NCBI GenBank assembly: GCA_041550555.1
Contig: JBFEOO010000005.1
Span: 14,017-78,016 of the forward strand
Reading direction: 5' to 3'
DNA: 64,000 nt
Origin: Arenicellales bacterium
GTDB lineage: Bacteria > Pseudomonadota > Gammaproteobacteria > Arenicellales > JBFEOO01
Below, in pieces: positions 6,525 to 23,357 of the stretch (positions are counted from its first letter, which is position 1; every line of letters begins with the position of its first letter). The notes beneath the pieces were generated by a model. That model saw only the letters and a program-made list of their open reading frames with translations, did not search any database and was not told the origin of the DNA. Position numbers and translations under genes: made by a program.

Positions 6525-8549
6525 TCAGGCGCCCCCCGCACGCCGACTTCCGCGGCGCCTCGACCCCGGCCGAGATACGCCGCCGGTGAGGGGCAGACTC
6601 ACGACCCGGCCGAGTCTCGGGTACCTCTCGCGCGCGTGCGGGATGGCCATCGCATCGACGAAGTGCGCTTGGAAACGGGGCTCCACCGCCGTCTCCACCT
6701 TCTCCACGGTGCGCACCGTTCGTTCGATCTCGGTGCGGGCCCTGCGATCGAGCAGTGCGATGCGTGCGCCGGTCCCCGCGGCGTTGCCCGCCGCGGTCAC
6801 GTGCTCGAGCTCGCAGTCCGGTATCATGCCGAGAATCATCGCGTACTTGACGTCGATATGGCTGCCGAAGGCCCCGGCGAGCCGAATCCGATCGACCGCT
6901 TCGACGCCGAGCCGATCCATCAGCAGCCGCACCCCCGCGTGCAGCGCCGCCTTCGCGAGCTGGATGGCGCGCACGTCGTTCTGCGTGATGCGTATGGGAA
7001 TCTCGCCGCCATGCACGTGATAGCAGAACGTGCGCCCATCGGCCGCGATCCGGGGCGTGCGCCGGGCGAGGTCGCCGTTGATGACACCGGCGCTGCTGAT
7101 GATGCCCGTGAGGTACATCTCGGCGATCGCCTCGACGATACCCGACCCGCAGATGCCGGTAACACCGCTCGCCGCGACGGCGTCTTCGAAGCCCGCCTCG
7201 TTCGACCAGAGCTCGCAGCCGATGACTTTGAAGCGCGGCTGCAGCGTTTCGGCGTCGATGCGCAGCCGTTCGATCGCCCCGGGCGCCGCCCGCTGACCGC
7301 AGCTGATCTGAGCACCTTCGAAGGCGGGCCCCGTGGGGCTCGACGCCGCCAGCAGCCGGTTACGGTTGCCGAGAACGATCTCCGCATTGGTGCCAACGTC
7401 GACGAGCAGGGTGATCTCGTCCCGCAGATAGGGCGCCTCGGAGAGCAACACGCCTGCGGTATCCGCGCCGACGTGACCGGCGATGCAGGGAAGCACGAAC
7501 ACGCGCGCGTTGGGGTGCAGGTTCAGATCGAGCGCTCTTGCCTCGAGAGACAGCGAGCGATCCGTCGCAAGCGCGAAAGGTGCGCCCCCAAGCTCCACGG
7601 GGCTGATGCCGAGCAGCAGGTGATGCATGATCGGATTACCGACGAAAGTCGCTTCCAGAATATCCGTGACGGCAATCCCCGCCTCCTCGGCCACCTCCTC
7701 GGCGAGACGCCGTACCGCCCCGCGCACCGCATCGGTCATCGCCCCCGCCCCGCCCGGATTCATCATCACATAGGACACCCGGCTCATCAGGTCCTCGCCA
7801 AAACGGATCTGCGGGTTCATGGCGCCCGCGGCGGCGACCACCTCGCCGCTCGCCAGATCGCACAGATGGGCGGCGATCGTCGTCGAGCCCACGTCCACGG
7901 CGAGCCCGTAGGCCTTATCGCGGAACCCGGGCCACACGGCGATGATCCGGCACGCGTCGTGCACCGCCACGGTGACCTGCCACTGCCCCTCGCGCAGCGC
8001 GTGCTGCAGACCGTGCAGCACCTGCAAATCGCAACCGAGCCCCGTCAACCCCCACTCGAACTCCAGCGCCTCCTCGAGCCGCTGCAAGTCACTTTGAGGC
8101 TCGTGCAGGGTCGGCAGCGGCACCTCGACGTAGTGGAGACGCACCGCCGGATCGAGCGTTATCTCGTGCACCTCGGCGCGCTTGCGCACCACCTGGCGAT
8201 GGACCTGGCTGTCAGGGGGGACGTCGATGACGACGTCGCCCGCGATACAGGCCGCGCAGGCGAGCCGCCGCCCGGGCGCCAGCGGCGCGCCCCGGGCATA
8301 CTCACGCTCTGTTTCGCCAACGGCGGAGAGATGCTCGACCCGCGAATCGACACCGTGCTTGGCAAAACGGCCGTAGCTCGGCAGCACCTGGCAGCGCCCG
8401 CACAGACCGCGACCCCCGCACACCGAATCGACGTCGACGCCCAGCGAGCGAGCCGCCTGCAGCACGGACGTTCCGATCCGCACCCGGCCGCGCCGACCCG
8501 ACGGCGTGAACACCACCAGCGCGTCGCTTTGCTCTTGCTCGCCGCTCAC
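6525..8549 (-). CDS. RACo-like reductive activator of corrinoid proteins (N-terminal 2Fe-2S ferredoxin + ASKHA/DUF4445 ATPase)
   Basis: The N-terminus reads VVFTPSGRRGRV...CGGRGLCGRCQV, a plant-type ferredoxin Cys pattern. This is followed by a long ASKHA-like body (LAVDVGSTT, DVGTNAEIV). The start is uncertain: GTG at 8549 is chosen, and the ATG at 8726 would overlap the upstream gene by 109 nt. Confidence 0.8.
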   Translation of the reverse strand: MSGEQEQSDALVVFTPSGRRGRVRIGTSVLQAARSLGVDVDSVCGGRGLCGRCQVLPSYGRFAKHGVDSRVEHLSAVGETEREYARGAPLAPGRRLACAACIAGDVVIDVPPDSQVHRQVVRKRAEVHEITLDPAVRLHYVEVPLPTLHEPQSDLQRLEEALEFEWGLTGLGCDLQVLHGLQHALREGQWQVTVAVHDACRIIAVWPGFRDKAYGLAVDVGSTTIAAHLCDLASGEVVAAAGAMNPQIRFGEDLMSRVSYVMMNPGGAGAMTDAVRGAVRRLAEEVAEEAGIAVTDILEATFVGNPIMHHLLLGISPVELGGAPFALATDRSLSLEARALDLNLHPNARVFVLPCIAGHVGADTAGVLLSEAPYLRDEITLLVDVGTNAEIVLGNRNRLLAASSPTGPAFEGAQISCGQRAAPGAIERLRIDAETLQPRFKVIGCELWSNEAGFEDAVAASGVTGICGSGIVEAIAEMYLTGIISSAGVINGDLARRTPRIAADGRTFCYHVHGGEIPIRITQNDVRAIQLAKAALHAGVRLLMDRLGVEAVDRIRLAGAFGSHIDVKYAMILGMIPDCELEHVTAAGNAAGTGARIALLDRRARTEIERTVRTVEKVETAVEPRFQAHFVDAMAIPHARERYPRLGRVVSLPLTGGVSRPGSRRRGSRRAGGA

Positions 8550-8617
8550 GGGACTGGCTGCTCGAAACAGGGTTGCCGCCGCTCGCTCGTCACGGCGCGG
8601 GCCGGCGCCAACGCGCC

Positions 8618-9418
8618 TCAGTCGGCGCTCGGCCGGCGCCGGCGTCCACGCCGCTGGCGCCGCCCCGAGTCCTGCTCGGCGCCCGCCAGCGGCGGCTCGC
8701 GGAAGCCGGCGATCCAGCGTCGACATTCCGGGTCGTTGCCGGCCATCACGTCGGCGCCCATCACCGCCTGCACCAGCTCGGCATGCAGCGGATTGGTGAT
8801 CGCCGATGTCAGTCCGGCCCCGATCGCCATCGAAAGGAACGCCGCGTTGAGACCGTTGCGGTTCGGCAGGCCGAAGCTCACGTTCGACGCGCCGCAGGTG
8901 GTGTTGACCTTGAGCTCGTCGCGCAGCCGGCGAATGAGGTGAAAAACCTGCTTGCCGGCACTGTTGATGGCGCCTATCGGCATCACCAGGGGATCGACCA
9001 CGACATCGGCCCGGGCGATACCGTGGTCCTGCGCCCGCTCCACGATGCGCCGCGCCACCTCGAAGCGCACATCGGGGTCCTCCGAGATGCCGGTCTCGTC
9101 GTTGGAGATCGCCACCACGGCGGCGCCGTGACGCTTGACCAAGGGCAGCACGGTTTCGAGCCTCTCCTCTTCGCCCGTCACCGAGTTGACCAGCGCCTTG
9201 CCCTGATACACCGCGAGCCCGGCCTCCAGGGCGGCCACGATCGACGAGTCGATCGACAGCGGCACGTCGGTGACCGACTGCACGAGCTGCACGGCTTCAG
9301 CGAGGATGCGGGGCTCATCCGCCAGGGGAATTCCGGCATTCACGTCGAGCATGTGTGCGCCGGCCGCAACCTGCGCCAGCGCGTCCGCCTCGACCCGAGC
9401 GTAGTCGCCCGCCGCCAT
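8618..9418 (-). CDS. methyl-THF:corrinoid methyltransferase (pterin-binding, MtrH/AcsE-like)
   Basis: Pterin-binding TIM-barrel motifs are present (MLDVNAG, SIDSS, ALVNSV, TTCGASNVSFGLP). The first ATG is at 9418, but the conserved N-terminal FCIIGERINPTGRK is encoded in frame upstream (see findings), so the true 5' end probably lies between 9480 and 9550. Confidence 0.8.
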   Translation of the reverse strand: MAAGDYARVEADALAQVAAGAHMLDVNAGIPLADEPRILAEAVQLVQSVTDVPLSIDSSIVAALEAGLAVYQGKALVNSVTGEEERLETVLPLVKRHGAAVVAISNDETGISEDPDVRFEVARRIVERAQDHGIARADVVVDPLVMPIGAINSAGKQVFHLIRRLRDELKVNTTCGASNVSFGLPNRNGLNAAFLSMAIGAGLTSAITNPLHAELVQAVMGADVMAGNDPECRRWIAGFREPPLAGAEQDSGRRQRRGRRRRPSAD

Positions 9419-9531
9419 CTCCGCGGCGAGAACCTTGCGCCCGGTCGGATTGATGCGCTCGCCTATGATGCAGAATGGCCGGTCGAAACCGATGACGACC
9501 TGCTTGACCGCGGAGCTGACGATCGTGTTGG

Positions 9532-10548
9532 TTATGACACTGCCCTCAATACGTCCGGCTCACCGGCGTCTTGCGGATGCCACGGAACCCGGCCCTGCAG
9601 CACACCCGACGCGTCGATGATCTCGGCGACCGTTTCCTCTTGGCGGTACGCCATGACGTGCACGCCGTGAACGCCCCCGATCTCGCGGACCTGCTGTATG
9701 AGCTCGGTGCAGAGCTTCATGCCCTCGAGCTTGGGCTTCTGCGCTCCCTCGAGCCTGCGCACCACCTCGTCGGGGATGTGAACGCCCGGCACGTTCTCGC
9801 GCATCCAGCGCGCAGCGCGGGGAGAAGCCAGCGGACCCACCCCGACCAGCACGAACACGCGTTCGTGCAGGCCCATGTCGCGAACGCGCTCCATGTAGCG
9901 CTCAAGCATCGCAATATCGAAACAGTACTGCGTCTGCACGAACTGGGCCCCGGCCTCGATCTTTTTCCTGAGCCTGAGCGGACGGTACTCCAGCGGCGGT
10001 GCGAAGGGATTCGCCGCCGCGCCAAGAAACACGCGCGGCGGCGTCGTCAGCGTTCTGCCGCTCAGAAAACGACCCTCGTCACGCATGCGTCGCACGGCGC
10101 CGAGCAGCGACATGCAGTCGAGGTCGAACACTGGCATGGCGTCGGGATGATCCCCTGTCTGCACGCCGTCTCCGGTCAGACACAGAATGTTGGCGACACC
10201 CATGGCGCTGGCGCCCAGCACGTCACCCTGCATGGCGATACGGTTGCGATCCCGGCACGACATCTGCGCGACCATCGAGTAGCCGCGCCGCGCCAGCAAC
10301 GCGCACACGCCGATGCTCGACATGTGGCAGTTAGCGCCCGAGCCGTCGGTCGCGTTCATGGCGTCGACGTAGCCGTCGAAGATGCGCGCGCGCAGGTAGA
10401 CGTCCTCGGGGTCGGCCGAGTCCGGCGGCGAGAGCTCGGTGGTCACCGCGAAATGGCCGGCGCGCAGCACGCGCTCGAGACGTCCACCCGAGCTGTGCCC
10501 GGGCAGGATCTCGAGCGGCTCGCCGCCGCTGGTGCCCTCGACCGTCAT
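9532..10548 (-). CDS. metF: methylenetetrahydrofolate reductase, MetF-type (copy 1)
   Basis: 338 aa with MTHFR family motifs FAVTTELSPP, MSCRDRNRIAMQGDVLGA and LCLTGD. It has an ATGA start/stop overlap with the upstream MetV-like gene. Confidence 0.85.
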   Translation of the reverse strand: MTVEGTSGGEPLEILPGHSSGGRLERVLRAGHFAVTTELSPPDSADPEDVYLRARIFDGYVDAMNATDGSGANCHMSSIGVCALLARRGYSMVAQMSCRDRNRIAMQGDVLGASAMGVANILCLTGDGVQTGDHPDAMPVFDLDCMSLLGAVRRMRDEGRFLSGRTLTTPPRVFLGAAANPFAPPLEYRPLRLRKKIEAGAQFVQTQYCFDIAMLERYMERVRDMGLHERVFVLVGVGPLASPRAARWMRENVPGVHIPDEVVRRLEGAQKPKLEGMKLCTELIQQVREIGGVHGVHVMAYRQEETVAEIIDASGVLQGRVPWHPQDAGEPDVLRAVS

Positions 10549-11012
10549 CGCCCCGCGTCCGCGCCGCGTGGGAGCGCCGACTTCTCGCAAACGACGCGCA
10601 GCCACGAGGAGGCGCCGAGCAAACTCGTGTCGAGCGGTCGCTGCACCGGGTCTTCAGGGGAGCGCATGCGTGCGCGACCCTCGGCCGCCGCCACCCACAC
10701 GCAGCGCATGTGTCGATCGACCTCGCAGCTGCCGTCGTCGCGCACGCCGCCGCAGGGGCCGTTGCGAATTCGCTTCGGACAATTCATCGGGCACGACATG
10801 CCGGTCGAGTTGAGCACGCACTGCCCGCACATGCGGCAGTCGAACAGAAATCCCTTGACGGTCCTTTCCACCGCGCGCACCGGCCGCTCGAGTCGCCGGT
10901 AGCCCAGAGAGCGCCACAGCGGATGCAGGGCGACCATCACCGGCTCGAGGACCCCATACAAGGCCTCGAGTCCACGCGCGTGTCGCACCGACCATTGACG
11001 CGCCGCGTACAT
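10545..11012 (-). CDS. MTHFR C-terminal-domain protein (MetV-like Cys-rich subunit)
   Basis: 155 aa with the Cys cluster CRMCGQCVLNSTGMSCPMNCPKRIRNGPCGG, characteristic of the small partner of acetogen-type MetF. Confidence 0.8.
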   Translation of the reverse strand: MYAARQWSVRHARGLEALYGVLEPVMVALHPLWRSLGYRRLERPVRAVERTVKGFLFDCRMCGQCVLNSTGMSCPMNCPKRIRNGPCGGVRDDGSCEVDRHMRCVWVAAAEGRARMRSPEDPVQRPLDTSLLGASSWLRVVCEKSALPRGADAGR

Positions 11013-11015
11013 GGG

Positions 11016-11315
11016 CTACTCGCTCCTCATGCCCTTGGCCTTGATCAGCAGCTCGAGATCGCCGTCGGAGAATGCCTCCTCGAGCTGCGCCGCACATGCC
11101 GCCGCTGCGGCTTCGAGGTCGTCACCGCACTCGCTCTGCTGCCGACGCCACTCGCTGAGATACGCTTCGCTGCTGCCCTTGCCGGCGCGCATCGCGGCGC
11201 GGTCGATTGCCTTGTGGAAGCGATCGGAGAGCGGCACCTTGGCCGACCGGCGCCCGCTCTTGGCGATGACCTGTGCCGGAATATCACGCCAGTACACGGT
11301 GATCAGCTTGGCCAT
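11016..11315 (-). CDS. small conserved protein of the so-called virulence-factor domain family
   Basis: The N-terminus MAKLITVYWRDIPAQVIAK matches my recollection of this family, which co-occurs with MetFV/corrinoid clusters. Its function is unknown. Confidence 0.6.
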   Translation of the reverse strand: MAKLITVYWRDIPAQVIAKSGRRSAKVPLSDRFHKAIDRAAMRAGKGSSEAYLSEWRRQQSECGDDLEAAAAACAAQLEEAFSDGDLELLIKAKGMRSE

Positions 11316-11946
11316 CCGTGAGACACCTCTGCGCATGCTCTAACGCGGCGTGCAGTCCACCGTAACCCGTGTGACGATGCTCGAAAGCCAGGTTCAGACG
11401 CGCCGCCGCTTGTCTGGCGCGCTCGGCGAGCATCGCGTCGACGGTCTGGGAGAGATACACGAGCTTGCGGTAGTTGCCGAAATACAGCGGCTCGAGCTCG
11501 GGATGGCGGTCGAGTCCCAGCCCCTTCACGACGAGCCGCTCGAAATGTCTGGCCAGAAAATCGGTCAGGTAGAAGGTTCCCGGCTCGGCTTCGGAAAGCT
11601 CGCGAAACAGGCGCGTCCCTGCGAAGAATTCGTAGCAATGAGCGCCCGCAATCCGCTCCACGCCCTCCTGCTCCAGAACGCGATCGAGGGCACCACCGGT
11701 CCCACAGTCTGCGTAGGCCACGAAAATGTGACGGTAGCGGGTGCGCGCCGCGCAGATGGCCGCGCGCACGGCTTGCGGTATCTCCTCGGGTCTGTTGTGC
11801 AGCATCGCCGGAAGGCACTGCACCGCCACGGACTCCCAGCCGTTGGCGCGCACCAGCGCCGTGAGCTCGTGGGCGAGCGCACCGCAGGCGATCACCACAA
11901 GCCGTGATCCCTGCCGCGCTGCGTCGGTGCCGTCGGCTGCAGCCAC
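11284..11946 (-). CDS. DUF1638-family protein
   Basis: 220 aa. It contains VVIACGALAHEL and FVAYADCGTGGALD segments typical of DUF1638 proteins found beside corrinoid methyltransferase genes. Its 3' end overlaps the next gene by 32 nt. Confidence 0.7.
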   Translation of the reverse strand: MAAADGTDAARQGSRLVVIACGALAHELTALVRANGWESVAVQCLPAMLHNRPEEIPQAVRAAICAARTRYRHIFVAYADCGTGGALDRVLEQEGVERIAGAHCYEFFAGTRLFRELSEAEPGTFYLTDFLARHFERLVVKGLGLDRHPELEPLYFGNYRKLVYLSQTVDAMLAERARQAAARLNLAFEHRHTGYGGLHAALEHAQRCLTDGQADHRVLA

Positions 11947-11952
11947 GGGGAC

Positions 11953-12669
11953 TCAGGCGTGCGCCGCCGCTCGGTGCGCCGCCACCAGCTCCTTCGCGGT
12001 CTCGACAGCGACAGCTGCATCACGACAATAGGCGTCCGCCCCGATCGCTCTGCCGAACTCTTCGTTGAGCGGCGCTCCGCCAACCAAGATCACATAGTCG
12101 CCGCGGCGGCCCTGCTCGAGCAGCGTGTCGATCACGACCTTCATGTACGGCATGGTGGTGGTGAGCAGCGCCGACATGCCCAGTATCTCGGGCTTGTGCT
12201 GGTCGAGCGCTTCGAGGTAGCTCTCCACGGGATTGTTGATGCCAAGGTCGATCACCTCGAATCCGGCACCCTCCATCATCATCGCCACCAGATTCTTGCC
12301 GATGTCGTGAATGTCTCCCTTCACCGTTCCGATCACCATCTTGCCGATCGTCGGTGCGCCGGTCTCGGCAAGCAGCGGCCGCAGGATCTCCATTCCGCCC
12401 TTCATGGCGTTCGCGGCCATCAACACCTCGGGGACGAAGAGGATACCGTCGCGAAAGTCGATACCGACAATGCGCATGCCCTCGACCAGCGCGTCATTGA
12501 GGACCCTGTCCGGCGACCAGCCGCGGTCGAGCAGTATGCGCGTCCCCTCCTCGATCTCCTCCTTGAGACCGTCGTACAGATCGTCATGCATTTGTTCGAC
12601 CAACTCGTCGTCGGCGAGGCTCGACAGGTCGAGCTCCTCGCCGCTGTCGATTGGCTCCACGTTGGCCAT
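11953..12669 (-). CDS. corrinoid (B12-binding) protein, MtbC/MtgC/MetH-cap+Rossmann type
   Basis: It has the DxHxxG motif GDIHDIGKNLV, then SALLTTT and ILVGGAPLN. The N-terminal helical cap region reads LYDGLKEEIEEG. I set the start at MANVEP (12669). Confidence 0.9.
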   Translation of the reverse strand: MANVEPIDSGEELDLSSLADDELVEQMHDDLYDGLKEEIEEGTRILLDRGWSPDRVLNDALVEGMRIVGIDFRDGILFVPEVLMAANAMKGGMEILRPLLAETGAPTIGKMVIGTVKGDIHDIGKNLVAMMMEGAGFEVIDLGINNPVESYLEALDQHKPEILGMSALLTTTMPYMKVVIDTLLEQGRRGDYVILVGGAPLNEEFGRAIGADAYCRDAAVAVETAKELVAAHRAAAHA

Positions 12670-13247
12670 CACGTTACCCCTGTCAGAACGCCACAACACC
12701 CGTGTGACTTGCCATGCAGGCGCGCTAAGAGTAGGACTCGACCCCACGGTCTGCTGACGTCGCGGCGACGTTGGATTGCCGGAAAGCGACACGACAGCAG
12801 ACCGCGGAAACAGCGTTTATGGCTTGGCGCGGGAACCGCACGGGCACCATGCGCGGCGCCCGCGCGGTTCGCCGTGAGCGTGACTGAGCTGCCAGGCCCA
12901 CAGGCGTCGGCGGTCGACGCTCTGCCGGCGACCACCGGCATGACCGGCCACCCCCCCGCGTGCAGGCCCGGGATTGCGACGTCCGCCTCGGTAGGCCGTG
13001 GCGGGCGCCGCTTCGCCCGTGCGCGAGCAGACATGTTGGCGGCGCTCTCGGAAAAGCCGACGCCCAACGCAGGCGCAATAATTCGCCCCACGTCGCAAGG
13101 GCTCCTGCCTCGAGTTCATCCGCGCGCTCGGATCACGCGTTTTCCGCGTTCGATCTCCCCGCACAGCGATGCCCCACGAGGAGCACTGGACGGCTCAGGG
13201 GTTTGCTCATCCACAGACGCAGTACGCCGGCAAAGGAAAAACGCTTC

Positions 13248-14126
13248 ATGGGCGATATCATCGACGGCAAGACCTTCGCAGCGAACCTGCGCCTGGACAT
13301 CGGGCGCCAGGTTGAACGACTCAAGGCCCGGCACGGGATCACGCCGGGTCTCGCCGTCGTGCTCGTCGGCGACAATCCCGCCAGCCAGGTCTACGTTCGC
13401 AGCAAGGGTAAGCAGACACAGGAAGCGGGCATGGCGTCGTTCGACCACCGGCTGCCCGCCACCGTCTCCGAGTCGGAGCTGCTGTCGCTGATCGCGCGTC
13501 TGAACCAGGACGCCGCCGTGAACGGCATTCTCGTGCAACTGCCGTTGCCGCCCCAGATCGGCGCGTCGGCCGTCATCGACGCCATCGATCCCGCCAAGGA
13601 CGTGGACGGGTTTCACGTCATCAACGTCGGCAAACTCAACACCGGTGGCGACGGCATGGTGCCGTGCACCCCGCTTGGCTGTCTGATGCTGCTCAAGGAT
13701 CGCCTGCCCGAACTCGCCGGCCTGAATGCTCTGGTGCTCGGACGCTCCAACATTGTCGGCAAGCCCATGGCGGCGCTGCTGCTCAAGGAGAGCTGCACGG
13801 TGACCGTGGCGCATTCGCGGACCCGGAACCTGGCCGAAGAGTGCCGTCGCGCTGATGTACTCGTCGCCGCCGTCGGGCGCGCGAACATGGTCAGGGGCGA
13901 TTGGATAAAGCCGGGTGCGATTGTGATCGACGTCGGGATCAACCGCATCGACGCCGGCAACGGCAAGACGCGCCTGGTCGGCGACGTCGACTTCGACAAC
14001 GCGCTGCCGGTGGCCGGTGCGATCACACCCGTCCCCGGCGGTGTCGGCCCCATGACGATCGCGTGCCTTCTCCACAACACGCTCAAAGCGGCCCGTCTCC
14101 AGCACGGCATCGAACCCGCCGGCTGA
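13248..14126 (+). CDS. folD: bifunctional 5,10-methylene-THF dehydrogenase / methenyl-THF cyclohydrolase
   Basis: The product starts [15 protein letters not shown] and contains [41 protein letters not shown] and [10 protein letters not shown]. Confidence 0.95.
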
Positions 14127-14249
14127 ACAAAGCGGGATGGGCCGCCCCAGCGACCACCGCCGCATCGCGGTGCCGGGCTCGACAGTCATGGTGCGTTCAC
14201 GAGCAAGGCGGGCTAGACTTCACCCACAGCGAAGCACGGGCCGCTCCCG

Positions 14250-15092
14250 GTGACAGACACTTTCCTCACCGCCTGCGTCCAGAACTGCGCAAGCGCTGAC
14301 GTCGGCGCCAGTCTCGACGACAGCATCGCGCTCGTGCGCGAGGCGGCCCGCGCCGGTGCCCGTTTGATCTGCGTGCCGGAGTTCTTCTCCTGCTACTACG
14401 TCGACGACACAGGTCTGCGGGTGGGCCGCTACGCCGAGGACGAGCACCCCGCGCTGCCGGCCTACCGCGCCCTCGCCCGCGAGCTCGCTGTCTGGATCGT
14501 CATCGGCTCGCTCGCCGTGACGGCTGATTCGGGATCGGGGAAACTACGCAACCGCTCGTTTCTCATCGGTGCCGACGGCGCCGTCAAGGCGCGCTACGAC
14601 AAGATCCACATGTTCGACATCGAAGCGGCGAGCGGCCGGGCCAGCCGCGAGTCGGATCTCTTCGAGCCGGGCAGCGAAGCCGTGCTCGCCGACACCCCAT
14701 GGGGCCTGCTCGGCATGACGGTGTGCTACGACGTTCGTTTTCCGAGCCTGTATCGCCGCTTGGCCCAGGCGGGTGCGCACTTTTTCACCGTGCCGGCAGC
14801 CTTCCTGCGCGCCACCGGCCGGGCACACTGGCACGTGCTGCTGCGCAGCCGCGCCATCGAGACCGGCTGCTACGTGTTCGCGCCTTGTCAGTACGGCGAG
14901 CACGGCAAGTCAAAGACCTTTGGCCACTCCTTGATCGTCGATCCTTGGGGCGAGGTTGTGGCCGACGCCGGCGACGCACGCGGCTTTGCCATCGCCGAGA
15001 TCGACCCCGGCCGGGTCGCCGAGGTACGTCGCCGACTGCCGGCGCTCGGCCACGATCGCCGCTACACGGTCGTCGGCGGCGCGTCGCGGTAG
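14250..15092 (+). CDS. carbon-nitrogen hydrolase (nitrilase/omega-amidase superfamily)
   Basis: 280 aa. The catalytic triad context is CVPEFF (Glu), a Lys region, and MTVCYDVRFP (Cys). Confidence 0.85.
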   Translation: MTDTFLTACVQNCASADVGASLDDSIALVREAARAGARLICVPEFFSCYYVDDTGLRVGRYAEDEHPALPAYRALARELAVWIVIGSLAVTADSGSGKLRNRSFLIGADGAVKARYDKIHMFDIEAASGRASRESDLFEPGSEAVLADTPWGLLGMTVCYDVRFPSLYRRLAQAGAHFFTVPAAFLRATGRAHWHVLLRSRAIETGCYVFAPCQYGEHGKSKTFGHSLIVDPWGEVVADAGDARGFAIAEIDPGRVAEVRRRLPALGHDRRYTVVGGASR

Positions 15093-15197: not shown

Positions 15198-15232
15198 CCG
15201 GGACGGTACAACGTCTGCTAACTCCGTCCCGG
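15198..15232. repeat. 9-bp perfect inverted repeat (stem-loop) just upstream of the OLD-like gene
   Basis: CCGGGACGG (15198-15206) and CCGTCCCGG (15224-15232) are separated by 17 nt. No U-tract follows. Confidence 0.5.
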
Positions 15233-15265: not shown

Positions 15266-17248
15266 ATGCAGCTCACTCACGCCGAAATCTCCGATTTCCA
15301 AAGCGTCCGCGAATCCAATCCGATCGACATCGGCGATATCACCTGCCTGGTCGGCAGCAACGAGGCCGGCAAGACCGCCTTGCTGCAGGCGTTGTACCGG
15401 CTCAATCCGATCGTCGACGGCGACGCCCAGTACAGCGTCGATGACGACTACCCCCGCGCCGACGTCGACGACTACGAGCGTCTGGTGGCGCAAGCAGCAC
15501 AGCCGCCGGCGACGGTGGTGCGCGCCATGTTTGCGCTGCAGGATGACGACCTCACCGACCTGCACCGCGATTTCGGCGAGGCGGCGTTGCGCCTCCGGCA
15601 CATCGTGGTATGGAAGGGATACGACAACAAACGCAAGTTCCGCCTGCAGACCGACGAGCGGGCAGCGGTAGCACACATGCTGACCGCCCCGGATCTGGAC
15701 GCCGACGTCCGCACGGCGCTGGCCGGCAGCGAGACGTTCGCCGACATCCTGGAACGCGCGGCCACCGTGAGCACGACGCCGGCCGTCGAACGCGTCACCG
15801 CCCTTGCCCGCTCCGCGTGTGATCTCGGCTTCGACCGCCTGCTGTATCACAGCTACCTGCTGCCGCGTTTACCCCGCTTCGTGTACTTCGACGACCTCTA
15901 TCAGTTACAGGGACGGGAGAATCTCGACGCCCTCAAGCGACGTCGCGACGCACAGCAGCTGTTACCGTCCGACCACGCTATGTTGGGCTTGATAGAGCAG
16001 GCCCGCCTCGACATCGATCAGCTGTTGCATCCCGGCCGCACTCAGGCACTGGTGAGCAAGCTCGAGAACGCCGGCATGCGCCTGAGCGACGCCGTCTCCC
16101 GCTGCTGGTCGCAGAGCCGATCTCTGCGGGTGCGATTCGACGTCCGCCCCGCCCATCCCGACGACCCCGAGGGGCTGCGGGAGGGGACCAACATCTGGGC
16201 ATGGGTCTACGACACCCGTCACAAGGTCACCACCGGGCTGCACGAGCGCTCTCGCGGCTTCCTCTGGTTTTTCTCGTTCATGGCCTGGTACTGGCAACTG
16301 CGACAGTCGGAACAGCCCCTGGTGCTGCTGCTCGACGAGCCGGGACTGTCGCTGCATGCGCAGGCACAACGGGATCTGGTGCGCTATTTCGAGGACGAAC
16401 TCAAACCCAATCACCAGCTCGTCTACACCACGCATTCGCCGTTCATGGTCAACCCTCTTCATCTTGAGCGCGTGCGCATCGTCGAGGATCTGCACGACCC
16501 GCGCAACGATGACGTCGACGGCGGATCTTCGGGCACGCGGGTGCTCACCGAGTTCATGGACGCACGCCGAGAGAGCCTGGTGCCCTTGCAGGCGGCGCTC
16601 GGCCATCGCATCGTCGACTCACTGCTACCGCGCTCGGACATTCTCGTCGTCGACGACGTCTCCGACCTGATCTACCTGAAGGTGATGTCGGAGCTGATTC
16701 AGCAGGAACGGCGTATCGGCTTGAGCCTGCGCTGGTGCCTGCTGCCGGTAGGCGGCGCGCGACGCTTGCTGGAATTCGCTGCTCTGACCGGCACCAGGGA
16801 GAACGGCGTTCTGGCGGCATTGCTCGGTATTCACGCCGACGAACGCCAGCTCGTCGACGCCGTTTATGCGCGCAAGCTGCTGCAGAAGAATCACATCGTC
16901 ACCTTCGGCGATTTTCTGGGTCGCGCGGAGGCAGATATCGAGGACATGTTCGAGCCGTCATTCTATGTGCAGCTCGTCAATCTGGCCTATCGGCAGAGCC
17001 TGAGCGAGTCGGTCACGGAGACGGCGCTCGATCCGAGAGAACAATGCATGCGGGCGCGCGTTCGGCGATTCTTCGAGCAGTATCCGCTGCGCGACGGCGA
17101 GCCGTTCGACCACTATCGGCCGGCGCGGACGCTGCTCGAGAACATCAACGGGCTCAGTGCCGATATTGCTCACATCACGCGTGAGAAATTCGCCACCATG
17201 TTCCTGTGGCTAAACTCACTGCTCGCGACCGAGATCGATCGCCGTTGA
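15266..17248 (+). CDS. OLD-family / fused-PARIS-like ABC ATPase with C-terminal Toprim-like domain (putative anti-phage or nuclease protein)
   Basis: 660 aa counted from the ATG at 15266. Motifs are Walker A GSNEAGKT, SRGFLWFFSF, Walker B LVLLLDEPG and H-loop YTTHSPF. The C-terminal ILVVDDVSDLIYLK...GIHADER...IEDMFEP resembles an OLD/DUF4435 Toprim. The upstream ORF extension to 14699 overlaps the nitrilase gene and is rejected. Confidence 0.75.
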   Translation: MQLTHAEISDFQSVRESNPIDIGDITCLVGSNEAGKTALLQALYRLNPIVDGDAQYSVDDDYPRADVDDYERLVAQAAQPPATVVRAMFALQDDDLTDLHRDFGEAALRLRHIVVWKGYDNKRKFRLQTDERAAVAHMLTAPDLDADVRTALAGSETFADILERAATVSTTPAVERVTALARSACDLGFDRLLYHSYLLPRLPRFVYFDDLYQLQGRENLDALKRRRDAQQLLPSDHAMLGLIEQARLDIDQLLHPGRTQALVSKLENAGMRLSDAVSRCWSQSRSLRVRFDVRPAHPDDPEGLREGTNIWAWVYDTRHKVTTGLHERSRGFLWFFSFMAWYWQLRQSEQPLVLLLDEPGLSLHAQAQRDLVRYFEDELKPNHQLVYTTHSPFMVNPLHLERVRIVEDLHDPRNDDVDGGSSGTRVLTEFMDARRESLVPLQAALGHRIVDSLLPRSDILVVDDVSDLIYLKVMSELIQQERRIGLSLRWCLLPVGGARRLLEFAALTGTRENGVLAALLGIHADERQLVDAVYARKLLQKNHIVTFGDFLGRAEADIEDMFEPSFYVQLVNLAYRQSLSESVTETALDPREQCMRARVRRFFEQYPLRDGEPFDHYRPARTLLENINGLSADIAHITREKFATMFLWLNSLLATEIDRR

Positions 17249-17462: not shown

Positions 17463-18719
17463 CTACGTCTCGCGATTGCGAATGCGCAGGAACACACCCG
17501 ACCGCGCCTTGGGCTCGAACCAGGTGGACTTGGGCGGCATCACCTCACCGGCGTCGGCCACGGCGATCAGCTGCTCGATCGACGTCGGGAAGCATGCGAA
17601 GCCGAGACGCCAGTCGCGCTGCCGACAGCGCTCGGCGAGCCCGCGCAAACCTGTCGTGCCGGCGACGTAGTCGAGGCGAGCATCGGAACGGGCATCGCTG
17701 ATGCCGAGAATCGGGCTCAGCACGCGTTCCTCCAGGACAACCACATCGAGGGCCCGCACCGGGTCGGCGGGCACTAAGCCGGGTCGTACCTGCAATCGGT
17801 ACCAATCCCCGTCGAGCAGCATGGCCAGCTCGCCCGGCCGCGTCGGCGTTGCGTCTTCGGCGCGAGCCACTTCGAGCGGCGTCACCTCGAAACTCTCCTC
17901 GAGCGCACTCAAGAACCGCGGCACGCTATAGCCTTCTATATCCCGCACGCAGCGGTTGTAGGCGAGAATGCGCAGCTGGTTGTGGGGAAACAGCGCTACG
18001 AGCATGTAGTTGTACGCCTCGTCGCCGCGGTGCGCGGGGCTCTTGCGGCGCTCGGCCGCGAAGCGGGACGCGGCCGCGGTCCGATGATGACCATCGGTCA
18101 GATATGAAACCGGAATCGCGGCGAACAGGTCCACCAGCAGACGTATATCCGTATCGTTCTCGACACGCCAGATCGTCTGTCGCAGACGGTCGGGAACGGC
18201 GAAGTCGAGCAAAGGTTCGCTGCGCGTCAAGCGCTCGACGCACTCATCGATGCGCGCGTCCCTGGCATAGGCCAGGGAGACGGGGCTCGAGCTCGCGCCA
18301 ACGGCCTTCTGATAGCGCGTCAGCTCGTCCTCCTTGATCGGCTGCGTGTGCTCGTGCTTCCTGATGCGGCCGCCGTCATATTCCGCAATCGGCATCTCCG
18401 CGACCACACCCGTCTGCACATGCTCGTCGGTTGCCATGCGGTACAAGTAGAGGTACTTACCGTGACTCGGCTGGAAAGCCCCTTCATCGAGGAGTTGTTG
18501 CAGCTTCGCGGCGTTGAGCTCGAGCACTTCGAGCAGCGTCGGGCGCTCCTCGGGCGGAAATTCCTCCCGCGAACGCATGACGTTTAGGAAATTGTCAGGG
18601 TGGGCGGCGGCGAAGCGAAACCGTTCCTCGGGACTCAGCGAGTCGTACGATGGAGCGACCACGTCCGCGACTCGCGCGGGGGCAACGAGATATCCACCGA
18701 AGGGGCTGATGATCGGCAC
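17463..18719 (-). CDS. DUF1015-family protein
   Basis: The GTG start at 18719 gives (M)PIISPFGGYLVAP...VVAPSYDSLSPEE, the typical DUF1015 N-terminus. The longer ATG ORF (18809) would overlap serC. Confidence 0.8.
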   Translation of the reverse strand: MPIISPFGGYLVAPARVADVVAPSYDSLSPEERFRFAAAHPDNFLNVMRSREEFPPEERPTLLEVLELNAAKLQQLLDEGAFQPSHGKYLYLYRMATDEHVQTGVVAEMPIAEYDGGRIRKHEHTQPIKEDELTRYQKAVGASSSPVSLAYARDARIDECVERLTRSEPLLDFAVPDRLRQTIWRVENDTDIRLLVDLFAAIPVSYLTDGHHRTAAASRFAAERRKSPAHRGDEAYNYMLVALFPHNQLRILAYNRCVRDIEGYSVPRFLSALEESFEVTPLEVARAEDATPTRPGELAMLLDGDWYRLQVRPGLVPADPVRALDVVVLEERVLSPILGISDARSDARLDYVAGTTGLRGLAERCRQRDWRLGFACFPTSIEQLIAVADAGEVMPPKSTWFEPKARSGVFLRIRNRET

Positions 18720-20852: not shown

Positions 20853-21363
20853 GAGGTCCCCCGTGCGGTGAAGCACTCGGCGATGCAAACCGAAAAAGCT
20901 ACGCCGACCGCTGGCTCCGGAGCAAGGGCGCCGGTCAAGCGCACGCTGTGGGCGGGCGAGCGCCGACCGTGCTCTACCCCTTGTCCGAGATTAAAAAGCG
21001 CTCATAGTGCATCAAGGTCGCGGTGGGCAATTGCTTGAGAACGGCGTCGAGGTGCGCAGCTGCGTCGCGACCGCGCCGACTCACGCACCGTCGGCTTCCA
21101 CCGCGGGGCGCGCTTGCCCACCGCCGTCGCCCGGCGTCGGCCGAGCGGCGGGCTCGGGCGATGAACGCGGGGCGGCTCGCTCGCCCGATGGACGCCCCTG
21201 TAGAATCGCTCGACCACCGTGACGCGTCCGCGGCGGACCGTCCACTCCCGACAGCGGGCGGTCGCGCGGACGCGCCGGCCTCCCGTCATGGCTAGTGGGT
21301 CGACTCGATCGCGGCAGGCGGCACCGTGGAACGAACCGAAGACCCGATCCAGGAGGCGTTGAC

Positions 21364-21759
21364 ATGACGGCACCGCTTTTCCACAACCTCGCTCAGGCGC
21401 CGGCCCCGGTGGCGCCGTTCAGCCACGCCGTCGAGGCCGATGGCTGGGTGCTGCTCACCGGTCAGATGCCCACCGACCCCACTGACGACACGCGGCCGCT
21501 GCCCGAGGGCATCGACGCCCAGACGCGCCGCGTGATCGACAATTTGCGTATCGTGCTCAACGGCCTCGCACTCGATCTCGAGCACGTCGTTCAGGTGCGT
21601 GCCTACCTGACCCACTTCGACGATCACTACGCTGCGTTCAATCGTGTCTACGCCTCGTATTTTCCCCACAACCGGCTCCCGGCGCGCACCTGCATCGGCG
21701 TGACCGCGCTCGCGCGCGGCGCACTGGTGGAGATCGACATGGTTGCGCGGCGACCCTAA
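21364..21759 (+). CDS. RidA/YjgF-family reactive-intermediate deaminase
   Basis: 131 aa with PFSHAVEADGWVLLTGQ, VRAYL and PARTCIGVTALARGALVEID. GGAGG lies 8 nt upstream of the ATG. Confidence 0.9.
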   Translation: MTAPLFHNLAQAPAPVAPFSHAVEADGWVLLTGQMPTDPTDDTRPLPEGIDAQTRRVIDNLRIVLNGLALDLEHVVQVRAYLTHFDDHYAAFNRVYASYFPHNRLPARTCIGVTALARGALVEIDMVARRP

Positions 21760-21880
21760 ACGGCCGACATCGCCAAGCCACCCGCCGTCCCCATCGTTTG
21801 TCAGCTTACCCGGCACAGGCTATAGTGGCGCCGCCGCGGTCCGGCGGCGTCGCCGCTCGCCATGGAAGGAGAACAGGCCC

Positions 21881-22762
21881 TTGAGCAGGTTCCGGGATCT
21901 ACTGCAGTCCGACACGTTCGTCGTCACCTGCGAGCTGACACCCCCGAAGGGCACCAATCTGGCGCCGCTGCTCGCCAACGCCGAGGCCCTGAAGTCCGTC
22001 GCCGACGCCGTCAACGTAACCGACTCGCATGCCGCGCGCATGGCCATGGATCCCACTGCGGTCGCCCATCTGCTTCTCGACCGCGGCTTAGAGCCGATCG
22101 TGCAGATGACCGGTCGCGATCGAAATCGCATCGCGATCCAGGCGGGCCTGCTGGGCGCGGCCGCGCTGGGTATCACCAACGTCGTGTTCATGGGCGGCGA
22201 TTCCCCCTCGACCGGAGACCACCCCGACGCCAAGCCGGTATTCGATCTCTATGCGGCCGATCTCATTCGCGCAGCGCGCTTGCTGGAGAGCGGCCACGAT
22301 CTGGGCGGCCACGCACTCAACGGCACGCCGAAATTCTGTGTCGGCGCGGTAGTCAATCCCGGCGCATCGGATCTGCGAGCGGAGCTCGACGCCATGCGCC
22401 GCAAGATCGATGCGGGCGCCGAGTTCTTCCAGACCCAGGCCGTCTACGATACCGCGCGTTTCGAGGAATTCATGGCGCAGGCCGGCGGTCTCGGTGCAGC
22501 AATTCTCGCCGGCGTCATTCCCATCAAGTCGCTGCGGATGGCCAACTACCTGAACAAGAACGTGCCCGGCATCTGCGTGCCCGAACCGGTGCTGCGGGAG
22601 CTCGCCGAGGCAGAGCAGCGCGGCGCCGACATCGAACGCTGCGCCATCGACATCGCGGCCCGCACACTGCACGCCCTGCGACCGCTTTGCCACGGCGCGC
22701 ACATCATGGCGATCGGCTGGGAAGACCGGATTCCCGCGATCATCGCTGCCGCCCGGGGCTGA
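21881..22762 (+). CDS. methylenetetrahydrofolate reductase, MetF-type (copy 2)
   Basis: The TTG start at 21881 is preceded by AAGGAG about 9 nt upstream. The protein has FVVTCELTPPKG, MTGRDRNRIAIQAGLLGA and VFMGGD. It is paralogous to 9532-10548 but has no MetV-like partner. Confidence 0.8.
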   Translation: MSRFRDLLQSDTFVVTCELTPPKGTNLAPLLANAEALKSVADAVNVTDSHAARMAMDPTAVAHLLLDRGLEPIVQMTGRDRNRIAIQAGLLGAAALGITNVVFMGGDSPSTGDHPDAKPVFDLYAADLIRAARLLESGHDLGGHALNGTPKFCVGAVVNPGASDLRAELDAMRRKIDAGAEFFQTQAVYDTARFEEFMAQAGGLGAAILAGVIPIKSLRMANYLNKNVPGICVPEPVLRELAEAEQRGADIERCAIDIAARTLHALRPLCHGAHIMAIGWEDRIPAIIAAARG

Positions 22763-22991: not shown

Positions 22992-23357
22992 ATGACGAAA
23001 CCGCTTCAGATCACGTGGCAGCGAATCGCTCAATCCGACGCAATCGAGGCAGCCATCCGCAAGCGCGCGGACAAGCTCAAGACCTACTACGAGCACGTCA
23101 TGGGGTGTCACGTTGTCATCGACGCGCCCCACGCCCACCAGCACAAGGGTAAGCGCTACCAGGTTCGCATAGACCTCACCGTGCCGGGGTCCGAGATCGT
23201 CGTCAACCGCGATCACGACAAGGGCGGGACCCACGAGGATATCTATGTGGCCATCCGCGACGCCTTCGACGCCGCGAAAAGACAGCTCCAGGAGTACGCC
23301 CGGCGCCAGCGCGGCGACGTCAAGACCCACGAGGAGAATGCTCCGCCCGAGTCCTGA
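22992..23357 (+). CDS. HPF/RaiA-family ribosome-associated (hibernation) protein
   Basis: 121 aa. MTKPLQITWQRIAQSDAIEAAIRKRADKL...YQVRIDLTVPGSEIVV fits the short HPF/RaiA fold pattern. Confidence 0.75.
   Translation: MTKPLQITWQRIAQSDAIEAAIRKRADKLKTYYEHVMGCHVVIDAPHAHQHKGKRYQVRIDLTVPGSEIVVNRDHDKGGTHEDIYVAIRDAFDAAKRQLQEYARRQRGDVKTHEENAPPES

Follow-up and report, generated by a model that had tools for sequence, protein, structure and literature searches.

What does a gene for an ATPase-Toprim protein of the OLD family do when it stands by itself among housekeeping genes, and what can its Toprim still do once part of the usual acidic residues has changed? The question is raised by a stretch of 64 kb (64,000 nucleotides of contig JBFEOO010000005.1, assembly GCA_041550555.1, from an Arenicellales bacterium; hereafter the window), in which such a gene codes for a protein of 660 amino acids (the window protein, or window copy when it is compared with its relatives). 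An original prediction, made from the letters of the sequence alone, could not place this motif variant in any described subtype. We have found that the window copy is a derived member of a family of about 650 amino acids that has a canonical VVEG..D consensus and that matches, at the level of the family, the PADLOC Old model and the Pfam family OLD-like_TOPRIM. The reading that we favour, with a confidence somewhat above even, is that of a defence-derived OLD protein that now acts as an ATP-controlled nickase or as an effector with an attenuated nuclease.

An OLD-type ATPase with its catalytic residues intact

The N-terminal 410 residues are an ABC ATPase of the OLD/SMC type with all of its catalytic residues intact, in agreement with the SMC/RecF/OLD-type head that had been read from the sequence. 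Pfam AAA_15 (E 1.2e-18, 68.4 bits against a curated cut-off of 32.1) and AAA_21 (E 2.8e-17, 64.2 bits against 27) both matched above their cut-offs, each match being split across the N- and C-terminal halves of the ABC head. The Pfam search of the protein gave no other family, and in the NCBIfam search no model attained its cut-off. The PADLOC names listed were AriA (at the top), Old, HEC-01A, PtuA and GajA, all of them through the ATPase region alone. The motifs of the original prediction (GSNEAGKT, SRGFLWFFSF, LVLLLDEPG and YTTHSPF in the ATPase, ILVVDDVSDLIYLK at residues 459–472, GIHADER at 521–527 and IEDMFEP at 558–564) are all found at the residues where it had put them; positions and conservation are given in Table 1. 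In the signature region R328, G331, F332, W334, F335, S337 and F338 are invariant in the family, and the D-loop histidine H364 is at +7 from the Walker B aspartate, the same spacing as that of H306 from D299 in P2 Old (PMC7049728). The long helical insertion that splits the head is the least conserved part of the protein across the family. In the OLD protein of Thermus scotoductus (Ts OLD) the corresponding region mediates dimerisation (PMC7049728), and by analogy the insertion may do the same here.

The open reading frame (ORF) has 660 codons plus the stop. Mechanically it reaches upstream to 14699, but the true start codon is the ATG at 15266, as shown by the homologues, all of which open with M-[KQ]-L at that point. 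An identical 660-residue protein was found on five other contigs, and at least six contigs, taken from different samples, carry the ORF intact.

A Toprim fold followed by a helical domain

The C-terminal 200 residues or so had been described in the original prediction as an OLD/DUF4435 Toprim. The Toprim fold stood and DUF4435 did not, this family having no match at E <= 10 in the C-terminal region. A full-length AlphaFold2 (AF2) model with a predicted local distance difference test (pLDDT) value of 84.7 had Ts OLD (6p74, E 6e-12) as its best PDB match, followed by GajA (ranks 2–4), retron/Septu PtuA and SMC heads; the structural alignments to Ts OLD/Class 1 OLD had a sequence identity of 11–14%. 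A separate AF2 model of residues 421–660 (pLDDT 80) consisted of four alternating strand-helix units and then a helical bundle. Its top four Foldseek matches were the C-terminal regions of OLD proteins (6njw, 6njx and 6nk8; probability 0.92–0.99, template modelling score 0.43–0.54), those of Class 2 OLD being aligned over 223–233 columns, and the next ones were T7 primase and small Toprim proteins. From these models the C-terminal 240 residues are predicted to fold like the Toprim-plus-helical region of the solved OLD nucleases.

Beyond the fold, the relationship to Toprim was visible only at the level of the family, by Pfam and PADLOC, or by hhalign. OLD-like_TOPRIM (PF20469) matched 19 of 22 family members, with a best E of 4.4e-4, and left the window copy unmatched. 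The PADLOC Old model aligned with canonical members from Walker B through the third Toprim strand (E 2e-18 to 2e-24), and with residues 347–406 alone in the window copy. The comparison of the family with P2 Old by hhalign had a probability of 85.5% (E 5.6e-6) and placed LVVEGvSD on LLVEGKTE, the segment of P2 Old with E398 and E402. A profile of the C-terminal alignment run against PDB sequences gave matches to TIM10 only, which were discarded as spurious. Between ATPase and Toprim, the linker contains the sole stretch of the model with a pLDDT below 50 (residues 447–453), and the most conserved linker motif of the family (Table 1) may be a hinge that couples the two parts.

One metal site remodelled, the other kept

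The ligands of both metals have been described for Bp OLD, Ts OLD and P2 Old (PMC7049728, PMC6755086). Metal A has a Glu at the end of strand 1 (E400, E377 and E398, respectively) and a DxD after strand 3 (D455/D457, D431/D433 and D453/D455). Metal B has an acidic residue at +4 (E404, D381 and E402) and a [S/T/D]-x-E (T506/E508, S478/E480 and D541/E543), and the active site also has a basic residue (K562, R487 and K550). In the family under study the consensus is E463, D467, D521 (in a D-x-Q rather than a D-x-D), D557/E559 and R618, with a canonical VVEG..D strand.

The first strand of the window copy reads VVDD against VVEG in the family. Of 52 members, 50 have E at position 463, 49 have G at 464 and 51 have D at 467, and the pair D-D at 463–464 is found in the window copy and a relative of 68% identity only, so that the replacement of the usual catalytic Glu by Asp-Asp, already noticed in the original prediction, appears as a true departure from the family. 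A change that had been missed would be the more damaging one: position 521, which is D in 49 of these members and would be the first Asp of the DxD from its place right after the strand at 516–520, is G in the window copy. Other changes are R499 for D, E526 for D, and altered GPN and TIT motifs. What the window copy keeps is D467, D557, E559, D560 and R618, plus K36, D357, E358, H364 and H390 of the ATPase. D557, E559 and D560 are invariant in the 52 members, with a D-x-E pattern that resembles D541/E543 of P2 Old (PMC7049728), and by analogy with E402, D541 and E543 of that protein D467, D557 and E559 are the presumed ligands of metal B. R618 is invariant in the 52 close members and is R or K in 75 of 138 more diverse representatives; it is a candidate equivalent of K562 of Bp OLD (for its role, PMC6755086). 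Judged by sequence, the metal-A site would have one carboxylate lost and another shortened, next to an intact metal-B site.

A family that has lost its metal-A residues repeatedly

A search of 5.8 billion proteins recovered full-length relatives of 650–660 amino acids at 43–49% identity, plus one at 97% and one at 68%. An exhaustive search of 50%-identity representatives gave 630 clusters at E <= 1e-30, the best 150 of which were mostly full-length, with about 650 amino acids and 30–49% identity. The species-representative genomes that carry the family belong to Latescibacterota, Planctomycetota, Acidobacteriota, Chloroflexota and many Actinomycetes, and also to Alpha-, Beta- and Gammaproteobacteria, a Staphylococcus and one metagenome-assembled genome (MAG) of Pacearchaeota, a patchy spread across phyla. 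A scan of a genome collection, with a first search pattern of GKNE where the Walker A of the window copy reads GSNE, gave no close relative (the best was 45% identical). Full-length copies are found on 56 plasmids, always annotated, where an annotation is given, as 'AAA family ATPase'. The phage genomes searched were essentially without family members, and the family is therefore not typical prophage cargo. We are dealing with a large, unnamed and horizontally mobile family, whose nearest described relative by hidden Markov model (HMM) is P2 Old.

Conservation over the whole family was read in 138 diverse representatives, for which the motif-local alignment was unambiguous. The ATPase residues K36, D357, E358 and H390 are conserved in 136–138 of them (K36 in 136 of 136 aligned, H390 in 137), E559 and D560 are present in all 135 that could be aligned, and D467 is D or E in 136. 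Position 463 is E in 113, its substitutes being D, K, Q, G, A, R, N and P, and position 521 is D in 108. Positions 464 and 521 covary (99 G/D, 24 non-G/non-D and 15 mixed; Fisher 3e-14, phylogeny not corrected for). The non-canonical metal-A states are scattered on a neighbour-joining tree, where parsimony requires at least 20 changes from a canonical root; the metal-A triad has therefore been lost repeatedly in the family, the window copy being one such case. To judge from these alignments, the family has lost its metal-A residues about 20 times independently, with an unvarying ATPase.

An old acquisition inherited with its neighbours

The gene lies between a nitrilase-superfamily gene (nit) and a DUF1015 gene, and had been taken in the original prediction for a single-gene insertion. 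This is right in that the next-closest relatives have no such gene beside serA-serC-DUF1015, but the insertion is not recent. The 68% orthologue (68.5% protein identity) is found at the same nit/DUF1015 junction in a second lineage, and the identities between the neighbouring proteins of both lineages (nit 64%, DUF1015 64%, serA 68%, serC 76%, folD 80%) bracket that value, so that the OLD gene and its neighbours have been passed on together since the lineages split. The ratio of non-synonymous to synonymous substitution rates (dN/dS) between the two copies was 0.21 for the whole gene and 0.17 for the Toprim, with a dS of about 1, and that of the neighbours ranged between 0.13 and 0.32. The shared junction and the divergence in step indicate that the gene was acquired long ago and transmitted vertically from then on. 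A recent insertion was rejected on this co-divergence and on the lack of any G+C anomaly, the gene having the same G+C as its flanks, and a pseudogene or decaying gene on the dN/dS of 0.21 and the intact ORFs.

The next-closest relatives of the DUF1015 gene (59% and 54%) keep serA-serC-DUF1015 with other genes beside them, and have neither the OLD gene nor the nitrilase; the gene is hence no core gene of the whole group. In a metagenome scan the clade with D-D was found in these two lineages only. A paper on metagenomes of deep marine sediments of the Gulfs of Kathiawar cites the accession prefixes of the contigs that hold the 97% and 68% relatives. Among named sequences, those closest to the DUF1015 neighbour come from Gammaproteobacteria MAGs. 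In the 68% lineage the spacer between nit and the OLD gene is 47 bp, not 173 bp, which makes co-transcription with the nitrilase plausible there; the same locus (L004:5493-6800) has a glutamine-synthetase-like gene (Gln-synt_C) between folD and the nitrilase.

In the neighbour-joining tree the window protein and its 97% and 68% relatives form a clade (200/200 bootstraps), which is sister to the sequences P0003 and P0008 (200/200). These two already have D464 and G521 but still keep E463, which suggests a stepwise change. The divergence of the window copy was uneven along the protein: its identity to canonical members was 0.37 in the linker and 0.42 in the Toprim, against 0.70 among canonical members in both cases, whereas in the ATPase halves it was 0.60–0.67 against 0.69–0.76 (0.67 against 0.76 in the C-terminal half). 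The linker is the region of the window protein furthest from the family. The fast divergence of linker and Toprim, with the later dN/dS of 0.17 in the Toprim, points to an episode of rapid change followed by renewed constraint, and not to a gene that is decaying.

Neighbouring genes and search for a partner

The neighbours are those that had been predicted, a CN_hydrolase gene upstream on the same strand and DUF1015, serC and serA convergent downstream (Table 1). No helicase, AriB-like, HNH or reverse transcriptase (RT) gene adjoins 15266–17248. In an all-against-all comparison of ORFs (BLASTP clustering) across 88 family loci we found no conserved neighbour: no cluster was common to more than six loci, the six-locus clusters of nitrilase and DUF1015 stem from the window's own clade, and many family loci have no co-oriented adjacent ORF whatever. 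The lack of a partner gene, pointed out before for this locus, thus extends to the family. The whole 64-kb window gave no hit in a tRNA scan and none above the gathering score in an Rfam scan, and so there is no clue to an integration site or a non-coding RNA (ncRNA).

The surroundings of relatives elsewhere are of another kind, and often they are defence islands. One is found in a Leptospira island with HepT/MNT, RelB/YafQ and BrnT toxin-antitoxin pairs and IS66, another in an element with an integrase, a resolvase and an excisionase-type helix-turn-helix protein, and a Fic protein is located near a family member of the sister clade. A third relative (P0054) is part of a dense island (L090:1959-13328) with a PAPS-reductase-like gene, a ScoMcrA-type DNA-SBD/HNH protein, an insertion sequence transposase, a TIR-domain protein and an FRG/TPR protein; the island also holds a second ATPase of the AAA_15/AAA_21 type, shorter and followed by a small gene. 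These surroundings are, circumstantially, the signature of mobile defence cargo.

Table 1. Positions in the window of the OLD-family gene, its protein features and its immediate neighbours.
Feature	Residues	Position	Strand	Remarks
Complete gene, 660-aa OLD-family ATPase-Toprim protein		15266..17248	+	ORF and translation; stop codon included
Walker A GSNEAGKT	30–37	15353..15376	+	G30, N32, E33, G35, K36 invariant in 52 members
Mainly helical insertion of about 260 aa, splitting the halves of the ABC head	61–320	15446..16225	+	AF2 pLDDT mostly 84–97
Signature-like SRGFLWFFSF	329–338	16250..16279	+	Inside the AAA_15/AAA_21 match
Walker B LVLLLDEPG and D-loop His	352–360 (D357, E358); H364	16319..16357	+	D357, E358, H364 invariant
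H-loop YTTHSPF	387–393	16424..16444	+	H390, S391, P392, F393 invariant in 52 members
Linker between ATPase and Toprim	411–455	16496..16630	+	Model confidence low at 447–453
Most conserved linker motif of the family, DSLFPLQGALGYEI, here ESLVPLQAALGHRI	436–449	16571–16612		Overlaps 447–453 in part
Toprim domain	456–565	16631..16960	+	Predicted strands 458–462, 490–494, 516–520, 544–546
First Toprim strand and helix, ILVVDDVSDLIYLK	459–472	16640..16681	+	D463 for metal-A Glu, D464 for Gly, D467 kept
End of strand 3, GIHADER	521–527	16826..16846	+	G521 for first Asp of DxD; H523 at second position
EADIEDMF	555–562	16928..16951	+	D557, E559 presumed metal-B ligands; D560 invariant
C-terminal helical domain	566–660	16961..17245	+	Helices 564–651; invariant R618 in FxHYRPAR
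Upstream neighbour, nitrilase-superfamily (CN_hydrolase) gene		14250..15092	+	Same strand, 173-bp spacer
Downstream neighbour, DUF1015 gene		17463..18719	-	Convergent; then serC (Aminotran_5), serA (2-Hacid_dh)

In three of the family loci a small gene of 150–200 amino acids without any Pfam match lies on the same strand, 24–135 nt past the stop of the OLD-like gene (L089:8981-9571, L091:8997-9518 and L090:9116-9574). The three loci are unrelated, the small genes were not linked to each other by BLASTP clustering, and in most loci there is none; they may encode an accessory protein that has diverged very far. In the window, the spacer between nit and the OLD gene contains a perfect 9-bp inverted repeat, CCGGGACGG-N17-CCGTCCCGG (15198..15232), 33 nt upstream of the start codon, which the terminator scan did not call because it has no T run; promoter and terminator scans of the flanks gave nothing above chance. 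Further away, at about 7000–14200 on the minus strand, there is a corrinoid-dependent methyl-transfer cluster (RACo activator, pterin-binding methyltransferase, MTHFR, DUF5981, PF13769, DUF1638 and a B12-binding protein; annotation read in the 97%-identical locus L001:1-6861), after which comes folD on the plus strand. Cluster and folD together suggest a pathway from methyl groups to tetrahydrofolate beside the serine genes. Beyond serA are a RidA-like ORF (21295-21759), a second MTHFR-like ORF (21743-22762) and a ribosome-hibernation-factor-like ORF (22992-23357), in the same order as in L001.

What the window protein may do

On the reading we favour, the most probable task of the family is to defend the cell against phages or other mobile DNA. 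The ancestor of the two related marine-sediment lineages would have acquired the gene, and both would have kept it at the nitrilase/DUF1015 junction under purifying selection. On the branch that leads to the window clade, linker and Toprim would have changed fast and metal A would have been remodelled (E463D, G464D, D521G), while the ATPase set (K36, D357/E358, H364, H390), the residues of metal B (D467, D557, E559) and R618 were kept throughout. The ATPase head is expected to dimerise, and the binding or hydrolysis of ATP to gate the C-terminal region, which with one complete metal site would probably nick nucleic acid instead of degrading it processively, or would have lost most of its catalysis. 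The basis for this is that mutants of Bp and Ts OLD in a single metal site lose processive degradation and keep nicking, and only double-site mutants are dead (PMC6755086, PMC7049728); the window protein would hence most likely be an ATP-regulated nickase or a strongly attenuated nuclease.

Several points weigh against this interpretation. The in-vivo phenotype of P2 Old is lost when a single metal-A residue is replaced by alanine (PMC7049728), and so the changes in the window copy could mean a complete loss of the nuclease. The E-values of the C-terminal Foldseek matches are modest, about 1e-2, and D521 and R618 were mapped onto the solved active sites from secondary-structure position and hhalign, not from superposed coordinates. 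The role in defence is argued from genomic context and from distant relatives; residual nicking is argued from the mutants of Bp and Ts OLD, and gating by ATP is likewise a proposal. Finally, the window copy sits among housekeeping genes with no mobile-element or defence neighbours, and its stable inheritance would be unusual for a defence gene.

These last observations are what speaks for a domesticated cellular role, to which we give a rather low probability: the protein would have been recruited to handle host DNA or chromosomes, as Cran1 has been, and the change in the Toprim would reflect a new substrate or pure binding. The co-divergence with housekeeping neighbours under purifying selection and the fully ameliorated G+C fit well with it, and there are precedents in Cran1, vertically inherited and essential (PMC12796447), and in the chromosomal YbjD (PMC13261556). 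However, the gene is present in two lineages only and absent from the next-closest relatives, so that its function is not a conserved core one; the other family members look like mobile defence cargo; and nothing evident ties the gene functionally to the nitrilase or the serine genes, the nitrilase accompanying the family in this clade only. The context of the family thus favours defence, while stable inheritance and the precedent of Cran1 leave some room for domestication. Somewhat less probable, in our view, is a fully active nuclease with a relocated metal ligand, in which D464 together with H523 and E526 would replace D521 and rebuild the two-metal site, maybe with another metal preference. 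The covariation of 464 and 521 described above (uncorrected for phylogeny) would be expected from it, but is equally explained if G464 is needed only alongside D521 and its metal. It also draws on the presence of D464, with G or N at 521, in all six sequences of the clade (the window copy, P0001, P0002, P0003, P0008 and P0248, at 45–68% identity to the window copy except for P0001 at 97%), on the absence of D521 from 8 of 8 sequences with D464, and on the purifying selection in the Toprim. Many lineages, though, have K, R, Q, G, A, N or P at 463, residues incapable of metal binding, and the family therefore tolerates the loss of the site.

About 20 independent losses of metal A, with an ATPase invariant in 136–138 of 138 representatives, would also fit a nuclease-dead protein whose function resides wholly in the ATPase. 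Such a protein would act as a sensor, as a DNA clamp or as a toxic ATPase, and its Toprim would be kept for structure or binding alone. The anti-phage phenotype of YbjD does persist without the Toprim domain (PMC13261556). We consider this improbable: E559, D560 and D467 are invariant or nearly so even where metal A has been lost, which argues that the acidic site is still in use, and YbjD is remote, hhalign covering only the Walker A region. A decaying defence remnant, or a PARIS-, Gabija- or Septu-type ATPase that has lost its partner, has been largely refuted and is scarcely credible by now. The non-canonical Toprim without a Pfam match, AriA as the top PADLOC name and the missing partner gene would have fitted such an orphan, but the ORF is intact in different samples, the dN/dS is low over a synonymous divergence of about 1, the whole family is without a partner and the AriA match corresponds to a generic ATPase head only.

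Wider implications

Taken together, the data also allow a bolder reading, which we put forward tentatively and think rather unlikely as a whole: the family of about 650 amino acids would be a distinct, unnamed class of OLD proteins, with the context of Class 1 and the C-terminal architecture of Class 2, in which the ATPase is indispensable and metal A expendable, and the window clade would have been captured into the core chromosome for a host function. If this were true, some 20 losses of metal A against E559 and D560 never lost would imply a mechanism for which two-metal cleavage is not required. OLD proteins, known mostly from phage defence, are a current focus of research in that field, and the stand-alone ones are the least understood. 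A large family annotated solely as 'AAA family ATPase' is one that the 500–600 amino acid filter used in Class 1 surveys would exclude (PMC12392090). The family amounts to a natural experiment, with many lineages of which some retain the canonical metal-A residues and others lack them, all with an unchanged ATPase, and comparing them makes testable the question asked in the work on YbjD (PMC13261556), i.e., whether the Toprim nuclease is needed. The window copy, stably inherited beside genes of serine and one-carbon metabolism, is a candidate for domestication. If its D-D variant were merely a weaker nuclease, it would be a modest addition to the catalogue of OLD diversity. The gene itself can be explained; the recurrent loss of metal A that spares the ATPase, and the long vertical retention, are what merit the attention of specialists.

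Comparison with known OLD and related systems

The ATPase head of the AAA_15/AAA_21 type is shared with PARIS AriA/AriB, Septu PtuA/PtuB and the Class 3 OLD effectors of retrons. All of these need a second component (AriB, the HNH protein PtuB, or an RT with its ncRNA), which is not present here, and their matches are restricted to the ATPase. For retrons in particular, no RT was found among the neighbours and no Rfam match in the 64 kb, and the NCBIfam retron effector models scored 29–30 bits against cut-offs of 250–500. Membership in PARIS, Gabija, Septu or retron systems was rejected for want of a partner gene. The 'PARIS-like' label of the original prediction had to be dropped, the AriA/AriAB models matching the generic ATPase head only, with no DUF4435 match and no AriB gene.

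E. coli YbjD (OldB) and the archaeal Cran1 are similar in being OLD-family genes that are stable among chromosomal housekeeping genes. YbjD, a Class 1 OLD whose gene lies on the chromosome amid housekeeping genes, keeps its anti-phage phenotype without the Toprim (PMC13261556), and Cran1 is an archaeal OLD, vertically inherited and essential, with a non-defence role (PMC12796447). Both are only remotely related, however, and keep the canonical acidic residues of the Toprim (for YbjD according to the authors' alignment, PMC13261556). A further difference is that the window gene is confined to two lineages. The alignment with YbjD by hhalign was limited to the Walker A region, and the window protein is therefore not of the YbjD type.

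The closest resemblance is to the two main classes of OLD proteins. With Class 1 (P2 Old, Thermus scotoductus OLD 6p74 and Vibrio cholerae OLD) the window protein shares a single isolated gene, a C-terminal Toprim and an N-terminal ABC ATPase with the same set of Walker A, Walker B, D-loop His and H-loop His; Ts OLD is its best PDB match, and PADLOC Old and the hhalign comparison with P2 Old align the family through the first Toprim motifs. It differs from Class 1 in the length of 650–660 amino acids, against the 500–600 that delimit the class (PMC12392090), in a C-terminal helical domain of about 95 residues that Ts OLD does not have, and in the metal-A residues, since the family has D-x-Q, not D-x-D, and the window copy has D463 and G521 at the Glu and Asp of metal A. 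With Class 2 OLD and GajA (Bp OLD 6nk8, Xcc OLD 6njw and B. cereus GajA 8sm3) it shares a similar length and a C-terminal Toprim followed by a helical domain, which in Class 2 supplies a basic residue to the active site. In contrast to Class 2, no UvrD-like GajB helicase is found next to the gene or in any of the 88 family loci, and the metal-A residues are not conserved in the window copy. The window protein is thus a member of the OLD family by its ATPase, its fold and the family-level HMM matches, and belongs to Class 1 by gene context, while by length and C-terminal helical domain it resembles a Class 2 protein without GajB. The family of about 650 amino acids to which it belongs may correspond to one of the uncharacterised clades U1–U11 of Yang et al. 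(PMC12796447).

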